A stretch of 64,000 nucleotides of DNA from positions 16,160 to 80,159 of the forward strand of contig WLPX01000004.1 of the NCBI GenBank assembly GCA_009698575.1, read 5' to 3'. Below the pieces are notes generated by a model. That model did no database searches. It saw only the letters and a list, made by a program, of their open reading frames with translations, and had not been told where the DNA came from. The DNA comes from Actinomycetota bacterium (lineage in GTDB: Bacteria > Actinomycetota > Actinomycetes > S36-B12 > UBA5976). Each line of letters begins with the position of its first letter. The first letter of the stretch is position 1. The translations under genes were made by a program, and so were the position numbers. Below, piece after piece: positions 57,474-63,564 of the stretch.

Positions 57474-57688
57474 GACTCACCCCGTTAACTAATCCGCATC
57501 CCCAACGGCTAATTTCGACCAGATTAGGACTTTGTTTGAGCAATTTCAAGCATTTAAACATTAGGATTTAACCCAAAATTGGCCGTTCCTTGGGTGTGTG
57601 ACAGGTGTGACTCGGCCACAAAATTGCTATGTTTAATAAAGATCGAGGCGTTCGCGCCACTTCCCCAAGCGATCTACGAGGATTTGAG

Positions 57689-59680
57689 ATGAGCCAGCGC
57701 TCCCAGGTAATGAGATTCGTCGTTGCCTGCGCAACATCGGTATCGCTGATTGCTGGCGTGGCAATGGTTCCAACAACTTCAGCTAACGCAGTCTCCGTAG
57801 GTATTGGCGCTAAGAAAAAAGTTTTAACTACTGAGCAAAAAAATGCTAAGGCTGCTCTCGACAAGGCTAGTAAAGATCTGACGACTAAAGAAAAGAATTT
57901 GGCTGCCGCGATTAAATCACAGGCTAAGGCAGCTAAAGCACTTGAAAAAGCAACTGCGGCAGCCGAGATATCATCGGTTCGAAACGTTAAAAGTGCCAGT
58001 AAAAAAGCTAAAGCAAAAAGCAAAGCAGCCGCCGCGGCACTAAAAAAGGCAAAGCTAGCGAATACTAAAGCAGCCTCGCTTGTAGCCAGGCGAACGGTGT
58101 TGCGCGATATTGCTCAAGCAAAAGTAATCCGGTTAGATGCCAAATATGCTTGGTTGATTAATGATATTTCGACTTTGGATTGTGGCGCCGGAACTGATGT
58201 TGTGAGTGCATCAGGTGCACTTGAGCACGTTTGGGAATGTGGAATTGTTTACATGCACGAAGACGGTGACACGACACACGTCAAGACAACGGCAAATAAG
58301 CTAGTTGAAGTTAGAAACATAGGTTTACAGACGCCGGAAATGAAAAAGGGATCAAACCCTGCACAATGTGGCGCCACCCAGGCTTACGAAAACTTCAAGT
58401 CTTTGATGCCGGAAGAAATCACAATTGTGCAATTACGCTCGCTGACGAATGGTACAAATAACTTTGGTGGTGGTGCGCGGCCTACACGCAGCGTTTACAA
58501 ATTGAATAATGCCACTGGCGCTTTTGATATTGACGTCCAGACTGAACAACTTAAAGCAGGCTGGTCTATGTGGTGGCCAAACGCTGCCGAATGGGTTCAT
58601 AACAAGGAATACCTTGACTTGATGAACGATGCCAAGGCTCGTGGCGTTGGTCTTTGGAACCCAAGCCTCTGTGGTCCCGCAGTTGGCGAGGCACCACTAA
58701 TTTGGTTCAATCAAAATGCACCAACAATTGGTTCCGACACTGAACCGGCTTTCGGCGAATATGTGATTCTTTATAACCAAACAACCGCATCTATGGACTT
58801 AACTGGATGGTCACTGCGAGATGACTCACTCAATTTTTTCTGGAATTCAGTAACTGGCACATGGATGCAGAATAAGAATAAGTTTGGCGCTTTGGTTCTA
58901 AAGCCAGGTGAGCACAAGATTGTCTACATCGATAACCCAGCTGGATACCCACTTTCACCAACTGAATACGAATACTTCAACTGGAGCCGAAACGCACCAG
59001 GTGCTCAGTTAACAAATGGTTCGATAAATGGAAACTATGCAAATGGTGATGGCATTTATATGCAGGATAAATCTGGAAACATGCGAGTTTCTATGACAAA
59101 CCCATGCACCAGCACTGCGATGTGTGCAACACCAAAATGGGTTACAGACATAATTTCAACGTCTCGCGCAAACCAAATCATTCCTATCCCAGTTGCGCTA
59201 ACCAAGGTAGCTAACGTGACTCGTGATCGCTACAACCCAGTTGTCACTATGGCCAATAGCGCGAGCATTACCACTATTCGAACTCCACTATTGGCAAAAG
59301 GCTACGACGTTAGCGCGACGGTAGGCACTCCAATAGATTCAGTCCTAGCGCCTGGCACACCTGCGGCAATTGCTACCGCTATTGATGGGGCAAATGTAGT
59401 TGGAACTCGAGTTGGAATCGCTGACTTACTGGGAACAACGCGAACTAAGTTGTGGATTCGCCTTGCTTCCGGTTACAACACATTCCCATCAATCGTGGGC
59501 TTAACCACACAGCAGGCAACCGATGCGCTAACTGCGTCAGGATTTAAAAACGTAACGACCGTAACTGGTGAAAGCGTTGGCGGGGTTTCAGGCACAGTAG
59601 CTAGTTTGAGCGTGGATGGCTCGGCGCCAGGGACCAGGCATTTACTAACTTCAGTAATTGTGTTAACTGTAAACCCGTAA
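57689..59680 (+). CDS. Secreted thermonuclease (SNase)-lamin-tail-PASTA multidomain protein
   Basis: Signal peptide, K/A-rich helix, EDGDT..VRNIGLQTPE..CG..ARPTRSV..AKARGVGLW, GEYVILYN..MDLTGWSLRD..NGDGIY, PSIVGLTTQQATDAL..GF; ATG 57689 behind GAGGA. Confidence 0.75.
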   Translation: MSQRSQVMRFVVACATSVSLIAGVAMVPTTSANAVSVGIGAKKKVLTTEQKNAKAALDKASKDLTTKEKNLAAAIKSQAKAAKALEKATAAAEISSVRNVKSASKKAKAKSKAAAAALKKAKLANTKAASLVARRTVLRDIAQAKVIRLDAKYAWLINDISTLDCGAGTDVVSASGALEHVWECGIVYMHEDGDTTHVKTTANKLVEVRNIGLQTPEMKKGSNPAQCGATQAYENFKSLMPEEITIVQLRSLTNGTNNFGGGARPTRSVYKLNNATGAFDIDVQTEQLKAGWSMWWPNAAEWVHNKEYLDLMNDAKARGVGLWNPSLCGPAVGEAPLIWFNQNAPTIGSDTEPAFGEYVILYNQTTASMDLTGWSLRDDSLNFFWNSVTGTWMQNKNKFGALVLKPGEHKIVYIDNPAGYPLSPTEYEYFNWSRNAPGAQLTNGSINGNYANGDGIYMQDKSGNMRVSMTNPCTSTAMCATPKWVTDIISTSRANQIIPIPVALTKVANVTRDRYNPVVTMANSASITTIRTPLLAKGYDVSATVGTPIDSVLAPGTPAAIATAIDGANVVGTRVGIADLLGTTRTKLWIRLASGYNTFPSIVGLTTQQATDALTASGFKNVTTVTGESVGGVSGTVASLSVDGSAPGTRHLLTSVIVLTVNP

Positions 59681-59734: not shown

Positions 59735-61714
59735 CTACGAGGCTGGATCAGATTCAGGTAAATTCTGCGGCGAGATTGTTATTTGAAGTTGTGGTGCTGC
59801 GGCTTTAACGGCTTCAAGTTCTGCGGTCTTCTCCGCAACTTCAGCAATCGCTTTGCCATTGATTGCGGAAGTTGGCACACGACCATAAGTTGGATTTCCC
59901 CAAATTGATTTCTTGCCAACTCGGCGTCCAGGATATGGAGAATCCCACATCTTGCCATCACCTGCGTAAATACCTACGTGATAGACGCCACCGCTTCCAT
60001 GCCAAAACATCAGGTCGCCGACTTTGCGATCGCTAGCCGATACCTTGTCAGCCCAGCGCGACTGCGCAGCTGCGGTACGAGGCAAATCAATTCCGAGTTT
60101 GGCAAAGACATACGAGGTGTAGCCAGAGCAGTCAAAGCCTTTAGGAGTAGTGCCGCCGCGAACATAAGGCACGCCACTGTAGTCATTGGCAACATCGATT
60201 ACGGTGCCACCGTCAATACTTACTGTTCCAATGCGTGCCTGCGCGGCAGCGATCTCTGTTTCCAGAGTTTGAATTGTGCGGGATCTATCCGCTTGCAGTG
60301 CCTGGAAGGACTCGCGCACGCTTAAGTATTGAGCAACGGCATCTTTAGCCGCGCCAGCTTCGATTTTGACTGAACTGTCGATATCGATTGGAGTTTGGCT
60401 GGCACTTATTGCTGATGCGCCAGTTGCTGCTCCCAAAGTTCCCAAAACCAATGTAAGAGATGTTGCTACCCATGGTGGCGCTGCCGAGGCACGCTTGCCA
60501 GCATGGGCAGGTTGGCCATTGGTTTCCAGCACAAAGGCATCTACTCGAGCATCAATTCGCGAAAGCGACTTTGCCAAAGTTACATCGGCATCGTCTGTTC
60601 GATCGATAATAAAGTGTGCGACTCCGGTTGCCGCAGTGACGATTGTGGCCGCTGCAGTATCGATTCGGGTATCTGCCGTGGTAAGGCGAGAAGTTAAGTT
60701 CGCATCGAATGTTGCCATTCGATTGCTGGCCTTACTTGTGGCAGCCGCATATGCATAAGCGCCTTGAGAAATTCGGTAGTTGATCTTGCGATCAACTCGC
60801 GCTAATCCCCGATCCAAACCGTGGTCAGTTGCAGTCACGTTTGCAATCGCAGCATTTTTGAAGGCCTCGGCTTGATTTACTCGGTGCTGCACTCGGGAAT
60901 CAATCCGAGTGATACCCAGGTCCATGGTGCGCTCAAAGGCCGCAGCTTTGGTGTTAACCAGATTCACGGTTGTGGCCGCTGCATGCGAAAGCTGGTTTAC
61001 GCGATTTGCCACTCGAGCGTCGATTCGAGTTACGGCGTTTGCCAATCGAGTGTCGGTGGCATTGGTGGCTGCCACAAAATAAGCGACCGCAGTATGCGTT
61101 GCAGTAACTGTGCGATCAATGCCAGCGTCGATGCGAACATCGGCGCGATTGAAATCCGTTTGAATTCTTTGGTCAATGCGCATAGCGCTGCGATGGGCTA
61201 AATCTAGAGTTTTCATTTGTCGACGCTGCGCACGGTTTGCCACGTTGGTTACACGATTATCAACTCGACTAAATCCGCGAGTAACTTTGTTATCTATCCG
61301 TTCGGCCAATCTCACACTTGCTGGAACGCAAGCGTAAGCCGTACTAGATACGATCGCGCTGATGCGATCTGCAGTATGAAGATTTCGAACTAAGCGCGCA
61401 TCAAGGCGAGCTTCTAAGTTTTGGGTAACGCTAGCTAAGTTGCGGGTGCGAGTGTGAAACTTTGCGATCCGAAGTTTGGTTTTGGCATCCGAATTAGAAA
61501 GGCGTTGATCGAGCGCTCTGTCTGTTGCCTTAGCTTTGCCGGCTACGCCTTGGCCAAGGCTTGAAGTTAATTCAGTTGTGGATTGAATGCCTCGAGTAAT
61601 TAGGGAGTCGATACGGGTAAATCCAGCATCAAATCGAGCGTCCACGCGGTCGAGTAAGCCCATCGGCAGCGCAACAGCGCGGCGAATCATGGCCGTCGGA
61701 CGTGCAATAGACAT
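59735..61714 (-). CDS. NlpC/P60 (C40) cell-wall peptidase with a long N-terminal repeat region and one TM helix
   Basis: GVPYVRGG..GFDCSG...LPRTAAAQ..GDLMFW..YHVGIY..MWDSP; TM at aa ~415-435; ~10 repeats in aa 22-390. Confidence 0.88.
   Translation of the reverse strand: MSIARPTAMIRRAVALPMGLLDRVDARFDAGFTRIDSLITRGIQSTTELTSSLGQGVAGKAKATDRALDQRLSNSDAKTKLRIAKFHTRTRNLASVTQNLEARLDARLVRNLHTADRISAIVSSTAYACVPASVRLAERIDNKVTRGFSRVDNRVTNVANRAQRRQMKTLDLAHRSAMRIDQRIQTDFNRADVRIDAGIDRTVTATHTAVAYFVAATNATDTRLANAVTRIDARVANRVNQLSHAAATTVNLVNTKAAAFERTMDLGITRIDSRVQHRVNQAEAFKNAAIANVTATDHGLDRGLARVDRKINYRISQGAYAYAAATSKASNRMATFDANLTSRLTTADTRIDTAAATIVTAATGVAHFIIDRTDDADVTLAKSLSRIDARVDAFVLETNGQPAHAGKRASAAPPWVATSLTLVLGTLGAATGASAISASQTPIDIDSSVKIEAGAAKDAVAQYLSVRESFQALQADRSRTIQTLETEIAAAQARIGTVSIDGGTVIDVANDYSGVPYVRGGTTPKGFDCSGYTSYVFAKLGIDLPRTAAAQSRWADKVSASDRKVGDLMFWHGSGGVYHVGIYAGDGKMWDSPYPGRRVGKKSIWGNPTYGRVPTSAINGKAIAEVAEKTAELEAVKAAAPQLQITISPQNLPESDPAS
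60545..61651 (-). repeat. Protein-level tandem repeat, about 10 units of 36 or 40 aa
   Basis: (R/T)(I/V/A)D motif at about aa 34, 74, 114, 150, 190, 230, 270, 306, 346, 386; each is preceded by a D/E 11 residues before its D. Confidence 0.8.
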
Positions 61715-61722
61715 TTGTCTCC

Positions 61723-61880
61723 CAGCGCCGGTGGGGTGAGCTGTCGGGTGCGGCTCTGGGAAGTCAGCCGGCCAGTTTCCTGGCTTTACCCCAAGGTCCT
61801 TTGTGGACCGCTTACCTGTGGTTCCCCCACACTCACCAAAGTTTTGTGTCCCGCAGCAGGTGGTGAGACTTGGCGCCCTG
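61723..61880 (-). ncRNA. c-di-AMP (ydaO/yuaA) riboswitch
   Basis: Minus strand: gcgcc...GGGGGAACC (61828-61820)...TTGGGGTAAAGCC (61794-61782)...CCCGACAGCT (61748-61739)...ggcgc, ending next to the SD of the NlpC/P60 gene. Confidence 0.85.
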
Positions 61881-62163: not shown

Positions 62164-63564
62164 ATGGCGACAGTGTTGTGGTTTCGGCGAGATCTGCGCA
62201 TCCACGACAACCCAGCTCTGGTGGCGGCTGTCGAGGCAGCCTGGGCCACAGGCGATGGCAACGTGGTTCCAGTAGTCCTGATAGACCCAGCGCTTTGGCC
62301 AACTTGGGGTCCCGCCAAGCAGGCCTACCTAATCGATTCGCTGCGAAGTTTGGATGCCTCGCTGGCAGATAACCTCGTGCTTCGCCATGGCAAGGCCCAA
62401 GAAGTCATCCCTGCCATAGCCATAGAATTTGGCGCCACGTCCGTGCACTGCGCTTCGGATTACTCAGGCTATGGAATCGTGCGCGATAACGAGATCGCCG
62501 CAACTTTGGCCAAAGCGGGAATTGATTTTGTGCAGACCGGATCGGGTTATGCCGTAGCACCAGGACGTGTTACCAAAGACGATGGAACTTACTACAAGGT
62601 CTACACCCCGTTTTATAAACGATGGTTGATTCACGGTTGGCGCGCACCAGCTGGCGATGCGACCAAGGCGCCAAATTGGATTGGTGTTGAAACTTGCGAT
62701 GGTTATCCCGATCGTCCAGATACTCGCGGAGTTGTGATTCCAAAAGCTGGCGAAGCTGCAGCCTTGGAATTGTTTGAAACTTTCTTGGCCGGGCCAATTG
62801 AAAACTATGACGAAGATCGAAATCGCCCGGACCTTGCTGGAACTTCGAAATTAAGTATTGCTTTGAAGTGGGGCGAAATTCATCCGCGCACATTGCTGGC
62901 GCGCCTGGGCGACAGTAAAGGTCATGAAGTGTTCCGCAAAGAAATTGCTTGGCGTGAGTTCTACGCCGAGGTTGCATTCCAGCGTCCAGACACAATTACT
63001 GATTATTTCAATCCGCTCTATAAGCAAATGAAATACGACACTGGAAAACTTGCAGATGAAAAGTTTGCAGCTTGGTGCGAAGGACGAACTGGGTATCCAT
63101 TTGTTGATGCCGGAATGCGCCAGCTACGCACCGAGGGCTGGATGCATAATCGAGTCCGCATGGTGGTGGCTTCGTTTTTGCTAAAAGATTTGCATATCGA
63201 ATGGCAACGCGGGGCGAACTATTTCTTTGACTGGTTACTAGATGGCGACTTAGCTAGCAACAGTCATGGTTGGCAATGGACTGCGGGCTGTGGCACAGAT
63301 GCCTCGCCGTATTACCGAGTGTTCAATCCACTTGGGCAAGGCATCAAGTTTGATCCAAATGGCGAATACGTGCGCAAATACATTCCTGAGCTTTCGCATA
63401 TCCAAGACGGCGCTGTGCACGAACCTTGGAAAGTTTTAGGTGGCTTAGATCATGGCTACCCCGAGCCGATTGTGGATCATGCCGCCGAGCGCTTAGAAGC
63501 ATTAGATCGCTTAGGTAAATTACCAAAAGGTGTCCAACAAGCCCATAATCCAAAGGGTGAATGA
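62164..63564 (+). CDS. phrB: DNA photolyase (cryptochrome/photolyase family, CPD type)
   Basis: WFRRDLRIHDNPAL, YKVYTPF, TSKLS, WREFY, TGYPFVDAGMRQL, WMHNRVRM, DGDLASN..GWQW, RVFNP. Confidence 0.93.
   Translation: MATVLWFRRDLRIHDNPALVAAVEAAWATGDGNVVPVVLIDPALWPTWGPAKQAYLIDSLRSLDASLADNLVLRHGKAQEVIPAIAIEFGATSVHCASDYSGYGIVRDNEIAATLAKAGIDFVQTGSGYAVAPGRVTKDDGTYYKVYTPFYKRWLIHGWRAPAGDATKAPNWIGVETCDGYPDRPDTRGVVIPKAGEAAALELFETFLAGPIENYDEDRNRPDLAGTSKLSIALKWGEIHPRTLLARLGDSKGHEVFRKEIAWREFYAEVAFQRPDTITDYFNPLYKQMKYDTGKLADEKFAAWCEGRTGYPFVDAGMRQLRTEGWMHNRVRMVVASFLLKDLHIEWQRGANYFFDWLLDGDLASNSHGWQWTAGCGTDASPYYRVFNPLGQGIKFDPNGEYVRKYIPELSHIQDGAVHEPWKVLGGLDHGYPEPIVDHAAERLEALDRLGKLPKGVQQAHNPKGE

Follow-up and report, generated by a model that had tools for sequence, protein, structure and literature searches.

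Restraint and positioning of wall-cutting enzymes constitute a central open problem in bacterial cell biology, and the known solutions use separate partners, i.e., FtsEX, SteAB, or a bactofilin in the case of LmdC. The NlpC/P60 enzymes RipA, RipB, RipC, and Cg1735 are subject to the trans-envelope regulators FtsEX and SteAB (PMC12977500), while nlpC of Corynebacterium glutamicum, encoding a cell-wall peptidase, is placed under a cyclic di-AMP (c-di-AMP) riboswitch, for which translational control was proposed (PMC9960051). LmdC, a bitopic M23 endopeptidase of Hyphomonas neptunium and Rhodospirillum rubrum, is recruited by bactofilin via its cytoplasmic tail, and this cytoplasmic part sets the site of wall cutting and affects curvature in R. 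rubrum (PMC10945521). In Streptomyces, Scy and FilP are hendecad-rich coiled-coil cytoskeletal proteins (PMC9858780, PMC6599971), for which dimers of Ala-rich hendecads were described (PMC9858780).

In this work, we analyzed a stretch of 64,000 nucleotides (the window) from an uncultured actinobacterium (contig WLPX01000004.1 of assembly GCA_009698575.1, positions 16,160 to 80,159), in which a complete gene at 59735..61714 (-) encodes a predicted riboswitch-controlled, bitopic NlpC/P60 endopeptidase of 659 amino acids (aa) plus stop, with a predicted N-terminal rod. The overall order of riboswitch, helical repeat rod, hydrophobic anchor, and NlpC/P60 domain, which an earlier sequence-only reading of this DNA had proposed, is supported by the sequence. 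What sets this locus apart is that a predicted cytoplasmic element and a hydrolase share a single chain, and that the rod is unusually regular and without relatives in the searches described below; the arrangement suggests that wall cleavage may be paired up or positioned from within the cell. The explanation which we favor, and whose chances we put at about even, is a bitopic endopeptidase with a parallel, unsupercoiled cytoplasmic coiled-coil stalk. It should be stressed that the organisms are uncultured and that all functional statements made here are inferences from sequence.

Periodicity of the rod

The rod covers aa 17-398 (60521..61666 (-)) and consists of about ten repeats of 40 or 36 aa, which would form one continuous amphipathic helix, as judged by the sequence periodicity and by AlphaFold2 (AF2) models that are all-helical at a low predicted local distance difference test score (pLDDT). 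The repeat spacing listed in the sequence-only reading (40,40,36,40,40,40,36,40,40) was exactly reproduced by ten Asp anchors (D36, 76, 116, 152, 192, 232, 272, 308, 348, and 388). A D-x10-D pair had been placed within each of the repeats, and this holds for nine of the ten units, in which a second Asp lies 11 residues upstream of the anchor, but not for the seventh one, which has Glu261 at this position. BLOSUM autocorrelation of aa 1-420 gave peaks at lags 4, 7, 11, 14, 18, 22, 25, 29, 36, 40, 76, 80, 116, and 120 (z up to 8.9 versus 200 shuffles), and the motif R[VIL]D was counted 13 times versus 0.8 expected from shuffles (z 14.6).

The hendecad-type periodicity noticed earlier proved real, and it can be given more precisely as 40/11 = 3.63. 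Fourier analysis of hydropathy (aa 17-400) revealed a single sharp line at 3.63 residues per turn, with a power of 340 versus a shuffle maximum of 98, and almost no power was left at 3.60 or 3.667. The 40 full-length relatives all had a period of 3.626-3.632 and the same stripe angles. As an undistorted alpha-helix is described as having a period of 3.63 (PMC9858780), the hydrophobic seam is expected to run straight along the axis. In the family-averaged profile, 87% of the 15-residue windows were within 45 degrees of the global phase, across 382 residues and with a single local phase slip (aa 69-84); since windows at all repeat offsets share one phase, the pattern points to a continuous helix and not to a series of hairpins.

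On a wheel drawn with 3.63 residues per turn, the seam is composed of Val, Leu, and Ile, with some Ala, Thr, and Phe, and the back of Ala, Thr, Ser, and Asn, while Arg dominates at -100 to -130 degrees and Asp at +35 to +100 degrees. Measured from the V/L/I seam, R/K residues center at about -120 degrees and D/E residues at about +85 degrees in every relative. The two features looked for in a non-heptad (hendecad-type) coiled coil, i.e., a continuous seam whose period lies between 3.5 and 3.67 over many turns, and opposite charges on the two seam flanks (e/g-like), are thus both present. With Arg and Asp on opposite flanks, coiled-coil geometry would favor parallel, in-register association and disfavor antiparallel or folded-back packing, because in the latter like charges would meet. 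Intrahelical ion pairs (i/i+3 and i/i+4) are depleted, with 1-2 i/i+4 pairs observed versus approximately 5.8 expected; a single alpha-helix (SAH) domain was rejected on the grounds of this depletion of opposite-charge i/i+4 pairs and of the strong seam. Arg accounts for 12% of the rod, the net charge is +5 to +20 in most members and negative in two divergent ones, and no Pro is conserved inside the rod in the family alignment.

AF2 was run on the monomer, both for the full-length protein and for the rod alone, and the rod models were used for secondary structure only (all helical). The full-length model comprised one helix at aa 17-398, a transmembrane (TM) helix at 415-433, a helix at 447-494, and a confident NlpC/P60 fold, with the pLDDT of the rod below 50. 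The rod alone was modeled as helices 6-147, 155-270, and 275-397, with breaks at 148-154 and 271-274 (pLDDT 49, predicted template modeling score (pTM) 0.20).

Predicted topology, catalytic domain, and translation start

The sole TM-like helix, expected at aa ~415-435, corresponds to a single hydrophobic segment at aa 414-437 (PPWVATSLTLVLGTLGAATGASAI; 60404..60475 (-)), a predicted signal-anchor or TM helix, in which the only 19-aa window with a mean Kyte-Doolittle (KD) value above 1.4 starts at aa 420 (1.47). It is the most conserved stretch of the protein (majority-residue frequency 0.95, entropy 0.25), followed by the first 17 residues and the outer helix 447-494 (0.88 each), the catalytic domain (0.83), and the rod (0.71), and it carries G425xxG428xxxG432 (GxxxG), all three Gly being invariant in the family. 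Residues before the segment are biased toward K/R and those after it toward D/E. It is preceded by a basic linker, aa 399-413 (ETNGQPAHAGKRASA; 60476..60520 (-)), which resembles the basic N-terminal tail (MSRHGRH...) of short, rod-less orthologues described below, in a comparison of short peptides made by eye. The hydrophobic segment of the long forms occupies the place of the N-terminal signal of these short orthologues. Based on the positive-inside charge bias, the derivation of the anchor from an ancestral signal, and the need of the peptidase to reach the wall, we infer an N-in, C-out topology with a cytoplasmic rod.

The NlpC/P60 (peptidase C40) domain spans aa 514-603 (59906..60175 (-)) and matches PF00877 with 82.5 bits versus a cut-off of 23. 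Its Cys-His-Asp triad, reported as intact in the sequence-only reading, was localized to Cys529 (60128-60130), His579 (59978-59980), and Asp591 (59942-59944), all on the (-) strand, and these residues are invariant in an alignment of 16 diverse relatives. The catalytic part was modeled by AF2 with a pLDDT of ~75-90 as a papain-like alpha+beta fold, and a Foldseek search with the predicted structure yielded catalytic-domain matches only, i.e., 36 PDB matches at E<=1e-3, all of them NlpC/P60 structures, including SagA, MepS, RipA/B/D, CwlO, and LytE. The best explanation for the encoded enzyme is a predicted D,L-endopeptidase of the NlpC/P60 family. The domain is preceded by a conserved, predicted extracytoplasmic helix (aa 447-494; 60233..60376 (-); AF2 pLDDT 70-90), which resembles the N-terminal module of RipB, the NCBIfam RipB profile aligning over aa 438-593. 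All four NCBIfam models compared remained below their cut-offs (RipB 61.9 versus 335, RipA 55.2 versus 625, RipC 41.8 versus 425, and DIP1281 56.8 versus 517). The moderately conserved C-terminal tail, aa 616-659 (59738..59869 (-)), contains a predicted helix at 620-638.

The long N-terminus, which the sequence-only reading had considered credible, was found to be real, and its translation is supported by sequence evidence. A search with aa 1-420 gave 42 clusters, most of them 610-720 aa in size and all with PF00877, and the majority cover 100% of the query with 36-76% identity, and 40+ full-length orthologue clusters have the start in common. The ratio of nonsynonymous to synonymous substitutions (dN/dS) of the rod was 0.12-0.25 (Nei-Gojobori, eight genes) and, where pairs were less saturated, similar to the ratio of the catalytic domain; the rod is under purifying selection. 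A scan for internal starts revealed no conserved start codon with a Shine-Dalgarno (SD) sequence in the 40 codons before the anchor, and the protein of the window has Thr where some relatives retain an ancestral Met. Apart from one 4-residue indel near residue 24, the indels seen in the rod among 40 sequences were all deletions of 40 residues, located at three different sites. Each 40-residue deletion shifts the rod length by exactly 11 turns, and the rods belong mainly to length classes of 342-346 or 382-386 residues, with few at 378 (two lengths of 337-344 represent N-terminally incomplete sequences).

The start codon at 61714 is the first one downstream of the preceding in-frame stop in the open reading frame listing. 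It had been noted that a riboswitch and an SD sequence end right at this ATG, which agrees with a c-di-AMP riboswitch aptamer of the ydaO/kimA type (RF00379) found at 61714..61856 (-), with a score of 58.9 bits versus a gathering score of 38 (E 5.9e-12, model positions 1-134, i.e., the full model). The 3' end of the aptamer takes in the SD sequence (GGGAG at 61719-61723, 4 nt 5' of the ATG) and runs up to the first base, A, of the start codon. The riboswitch-before-gene arrangement was seen at 13 orthologous loci, of long and short forms, and in every long form the riboswitch and SD sequence directly adjoin the ATG. By analogy with C. glutamicum nlpC, we infer that translation of the endopeptidase may be gated by the c-di-AMP riboswitch, as in other Actinobacteria.

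Codons 1-17 (MSIARPTAMIRRAVALP; 61664..61714 (-)) encode a nearly invariant peptide (MSIARPTA(L/M)IRRAVALP in the relatives), and their synonymous sites are unusually conserved, the proportion of synonymous differences (pS) being 0.00-0.39 (mostly 0.06-0.33) versus 0.45-0.8 in the remaining gene. Within codons 1-19 (61657-61714 (-)), RNAalifold predicted a conserved hairpin at about +22..+58, and the SD region CUGGGAG is able to pair with UUCCCAG within the aptamer. Low synonymous change in these codons, together with the predicted hairpin, indicates that an RNA constraint probably overlaps the beginning of the coding sequence (CDS). The invariance of the N-terminus thus probably reflects, in part, an RNA-level constraint linked with either the riboswitch or initiation, and the expression platform may extend into the CDS. 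No stop codon interrupts the frame within the aptamer (in G000, the open frame has 722 aa), so that starts are easily mis-annotated, and the public gene calls P0027, P0032, and P0040 begin upstream, translating the riboswitch itself (…PGNWPADFPEPHPTAHPTGA…MSIARP).

The gene stands alone. A gene encoding a secreted SNase-like protein (683 aa; 57629-59680 (+)) converges on its 3' end, and a deoxyribodipyrimidine photolyase-like gene (466 aa; 62164-63564 (+)) diverges from its 5' side.

Distribution, origin, and competing explanations

Searches for relatives of the rod returned the family itself. Application of phmmer over 1.8 billion representatives gave 12 clusters, all of the rod's own family, and a 13-sequence profile compared with 5.8 billion proteins found only this family, always fused to NlpC/P60 except in fragments. 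No relative was detected among PDB sequences (with the single sequence and with the profile), Pfam, NCBIfam, and PHROGs, and no paralogue of the rod is present in the window's own genome. Matches of the rod to DUF4360, REF, a mutY model, and an alpha-amylase chain (E 0.045) were rejected as noise, and an NCBIfam DIP1281 alignment reaching the rod (aa 224-601) was not accepted as homology, its score being equal to that of the catalytic domain alone. A rod-only fragment (P0055, 254 aa, on a contig of 1177 nt) bears a precomputed PF14126 label; it is probably a truncated member of the family with a weak annotation.

Among 61 related genomes surveyed, the rod was present only in the window's own genus (12 of 37 genomes), and its carriers form one clade of a single Candidatus Nanopelagicales genus of uncultured freshwater (lake) actinobacteria. 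An NlpC/P60 match was obtained in each of the 14 high-quality genomes of the genus, i.e., the long form in six, a short form in six, and weak hits only in two. The orthologues of these six have 240-300 aa and 38-48% identity. The short orthologues examined (L026-L032) share a layout of MSRHGRH..., basic tail, signal or anchor, helix, and NlpC/P60, and the riboswitch reached the gathering score in six of the seven scanned. They adjoin a photolyase or an SNase-like gene (the SNase-like one in L026, L029, and L032, photolyase in L028 and L030), and, as short and long forms share these neighbors, the locus is syntenic across the genus.

A tree built from the C-terminal part united all of the long forms in one clade (support 100/98), which indicates that the rod was gained once. 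Five of the sequences were assigned to the long forms by hand: L015 and L023-L025, which have open frames of 555-702 aa, and L021 (295 aa, cut at a contig end), based on the identity of its C-domain and a partial rod match at that end. The long forms start with MS (61709-61714 (-)) and have …G(R/Q)(H/P)A… before the anchor (60476-60520 (-)), and the short ones start with MSRHGRHA/V…. From this, it looks as if an insertion, or growth, of the rod took place behind codon 2 and ahead of the former basic tail; peptides this short do not permit statistics. Tandem Repeats Finder detected no DNA-level repeats in the rod gene, which implies that the duplications are old. In two short-form orthologues (L030, 1180-2082 (+), and L031, 608-1636 (+); G017 and G012), the extracellular side is expanded instead, by a helical insert rich in Lys and Ala (…KAKARAKVIARIKARAAAKAAAHKYVAARMKAQRRAA…) that separates the signal from NlpC/P60, which looks like a separate lineage-specific elaboration.

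According to the explanation that we favor, an ancestral short protein, composed of a basic tail, signal/anchor, outer helix, and NlpC/P60, would have gained in one clade about 400 residues between its start codon and anchor, giving an N-in, C-out membrane enzyme. The rod would be one amphipathic alpha-helix of ~382 residues, i.e., ~57 nm at 0.15 nm per residue, and its chains could zip only in parallel and in register, into a straight, unsupercoiled homodimer or small homo-oligomer, with the GxxxG membrane helix at the same end continuing the chain pairing. Such a stalk would pair or cluster the outer catalytic domains and provide a long, 6-nm-periodic cytoplasmic handle, which could hold, localize, or gate the enzyme, following a logic similar to that of LmdC-bactofilin or SteAB-RipA, here within one polypeptide.

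Should the rod fold back on itself, it would be a compact, monomeric antiparallel bundle, e.g., of three helices of ~120-140 residues (~20 nm), with a regulatory or interaction role of the usual kind in the cytoplasm and not that of an extended stalk. In a monomer, the hydrophobic seam has to be buried somehow, the conserved Gly could make turns, and AF2 applied to the N-domain alone gave three helices with short breaks; however, that model has the low scores quoted above and the full-length run produced one unbroken helix, the hydrophobic phase continues through the proposed turns, antiparallel neighbors would set the Arg stripe against Arg and Asp against Asp, and 40-aa deletions at three sites would give helices of unequal length. 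An in-register homo-oligomer fits the tolerated 40-aa deletions and a folded-back bundle does not, and together with the phase coherence and the charge stripes this argues for the extended parallel form, which makes folding back unlikely, albeit far from negligible. The near-11/3 periodicity and the straight hydrophobic face could also belong to a peripheral membrane-binding amphipathic helix (of the apolipoprotein/alpha-synuclein/perilipin 11-mer type) lying flat on the inner leaflet, where it would sense or impose curvature, with the TM helix and the hydrophobic stretch of the N-terminal peptide (AVALPMGLL) perhaps fixing its two ends, and the positive net charge of most members would suit it. 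We consider this rather unlikely, as the hydrophobic sector is narrow (~100-130 degrees), acidic residues fill one polar/apolar boundary and would face anionic lipid head groups, the two divergent members are net negative, and the polar center consists of Ala/Thr/Ser/Asn, in contrast to class A helices, which have basic residues at both boundaries and an acidic polar center.

The derivation of the hydrophobic segment from an N-terminal signal, probably cleaved in the short orthologues, also allows that the segment is a cleavable signal, so that NlpC/P60 would be released to the wall, while the rod and anchor would stay behind and affect only synthesis, targeting, or export timing. Its weak hydrophobicity, its richness in Ala, Gly, and Thr, and the small residues that follow it (GAS, ASA, SAS) agree with such processing, but it is the most conserved part of the protein, with a GxxxG that the short-form signals lack, the -3/-1 pattern after it is not conserved in the family, and we know of no precedent for a 400-residue n-region on a cleaved signal, which also speaks against cleavage; on balance, cleavage seems unlikely. 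An extracytoplasmic rod, resembling the coiled coils of RipA/DIP1281, CwlO, and PcsB, is very unlikely. It would require the N-terminal MSIARPTAMIRRAVALPMGLL to act as a Sec/Tat-like signal and the internal segment, itself weakly hydrophobic, not to stop transfer; the invariant N-terminus does contain three Arg, including an RR pair, ahead of nine hydrophobic residues, and the DIP1281 profile alignment spans aa 224-601. Nevertheless, this hydrophobic run is just 9 residues long and is directly followed by D-R-x-D, the conservation of the N-terminus is at least partly RNA-level, the DIP1281 score does not exceed that of the catalytic domain alone, a rod so rich in Arg and with a net charge of up to +20 would be poor for export, and a new signal would have been needed while the old one was kept and made invariant. 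Finally, the upstream 1.2 kb might be a long leader or a mis-called frame, with the true start near aa 400, where the short orthologues begin at the equivalent place and some long forms retain a Met. This is hardly credible in view of the riboswitch and SD sequence adjoining ATG 61714 in every long form, the uninterrupted frame, which aligns over its full length in 40+ clusters with rod deletions of 40 aa and a single 4-aa indel, the low dN/dS of the rod, the lack of an SD sequence before any internal start, and the Thr at the position of the ancestral Met in the window's protein.

Several observations weigh against the parallel stalk itself. About a dozen Gly positions are conserved in the rod, more than in classical coiled coils, and the Arg stripe (-120 degrees) lies slightly further back than the canonical g position, which makes salt bridges in a dimer plausible, not certain. 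The confidence of AF2 in the rod is low, and its two runs conflict on one versus three helices. Hydrophobicity of the anchor is low (1.47 as the highest 19-aa mean KD), and signal peptidase could cleave it. The neighboring genes (nuclease and photolyase) hint at no cytoplasmic partner, and sister species have a rod-less orthologue, so that the rod is dispensable at the genus level and not essential for the enzyme. Moreover, all of the genomes are metagenome-assembled.

The sequence-only reading had inferred a one-protein cytoskeleton that positions cleavage, as a candidate determinant of curvature, size, or division site. A more far-reaching and improbable version of the coiled-coil stalk is that the rod acts as a membrane-anchored cytoskeletal element. 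Straight parallel coiled coils, with their strict surface period of 40 residues (~6 nm) and complementary Arg and Asp stripes, would then either join side by side into a submembrane lattice or filament or dock on a periodic cytoplasmic structure, and would thereby pattern peptidoglycan cleavage from inside a cell whose width is just a few hundred nanometers. If true, patterning of cleavage by one polypeptide would contribute to the size, shape, or choice of division site in ultrasmall actinobacteria, and a young cytoskeleton-enzyme fusion would have arisen from no detectable precursor inside a single genus. The rod-less orthologues in sister species of the genus offer a natural plus/minus comparison, and the protein is a compact construct for asking whether a cytoplasmic coiled coil localizes or gates an extracellular hydrolase. 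It is also a clean example of the recent birth of a long structural domain through repeat growth, and structural studies may find in the rod a model of a straight (unsupercoiled) coiled coil.

Comparison with known systems

The locus is similar to C. glutamicum nlpC in having an RF00379 aptamer directly 5' of an NlpC/P60 gene, with the SD sequence at the aptamer's 3' end, but differs from it, as well as from the short orthologues of the genus, in the ~400 extra residues between the start and the anchor. With RipA/B/C and Cg1735 it shares an actinobacterial D,L-endopeptidase domain placed after a helix, and those enzymes are controlled from the cytoplasmic side via membrane proteins and coiled coils. 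They are, however, secreted, their coiled coils are outside, and the control acts in trans, whereas here a predicted cytoplasmic element is part of the same chain.

The resemblance to Scy and FilP concerns the class only, i.e., a long, non-heptad, near-unsupercoiled, small-residue-rich actinobacterial rod. Those proteins are soluble and without an enzyme or TM fusion, and they have no sequence relationship to the rod described here. No DivIVA-like motif was found (no PF05103 hit at E<=1), and homology to Scy, FilP, or DivIVA was not detected in the phmmer and profile searches. DivIVA itself occurs in 39 of 41 genomes and does not discriminate between long- and short-form species, as both have it.

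Tropomyosin is a parallel, dimeric, heptad-based supercoiled coiled coil with ~40-residue quasi-repeats that match actin subunits. The rod would likewise have two parallel chains and a surface repeat of ~40 residues, while tropomyosin differs in being heptad-based and supercoiled and in binding a known polymer. Tropomyosin-like binding to MreB was considered and rejected, as the genus seems to lack MreB. The PF06723 (MreB_Mbl) matches in the genus (58 bits, profile positions 2-220, in ~615-aa DnaK-like frames; G000:C1:530881-531597 and equivalents) behave like Hsp70/DnaK cross-hits, and a PF06723 match was also obtained for the C. glutamicum control, which is without MreB.

LmdC has a cytoplasmic N-terminus, one TM helix, and an endopeptidase outside, an arrangement that is also predicted for the protein described here, and its outer coiled coil would have a counterpart in the outer helix. 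The two differ in the catalytic domain, which is M23 in LmdC and NlpC/P60 here, and in the gene neighborhood, as a bactofilin gene adjoins LmdC and no cytoskeletal gene is adjacent in the window. The tail of LmdC, ~38 residues long and containing a beta-hairpin, binds a polymer that is encoded separately by an adjacent gene, whereas the corresponding part of the protein described here is a predicted helical rod of ~380 residues.

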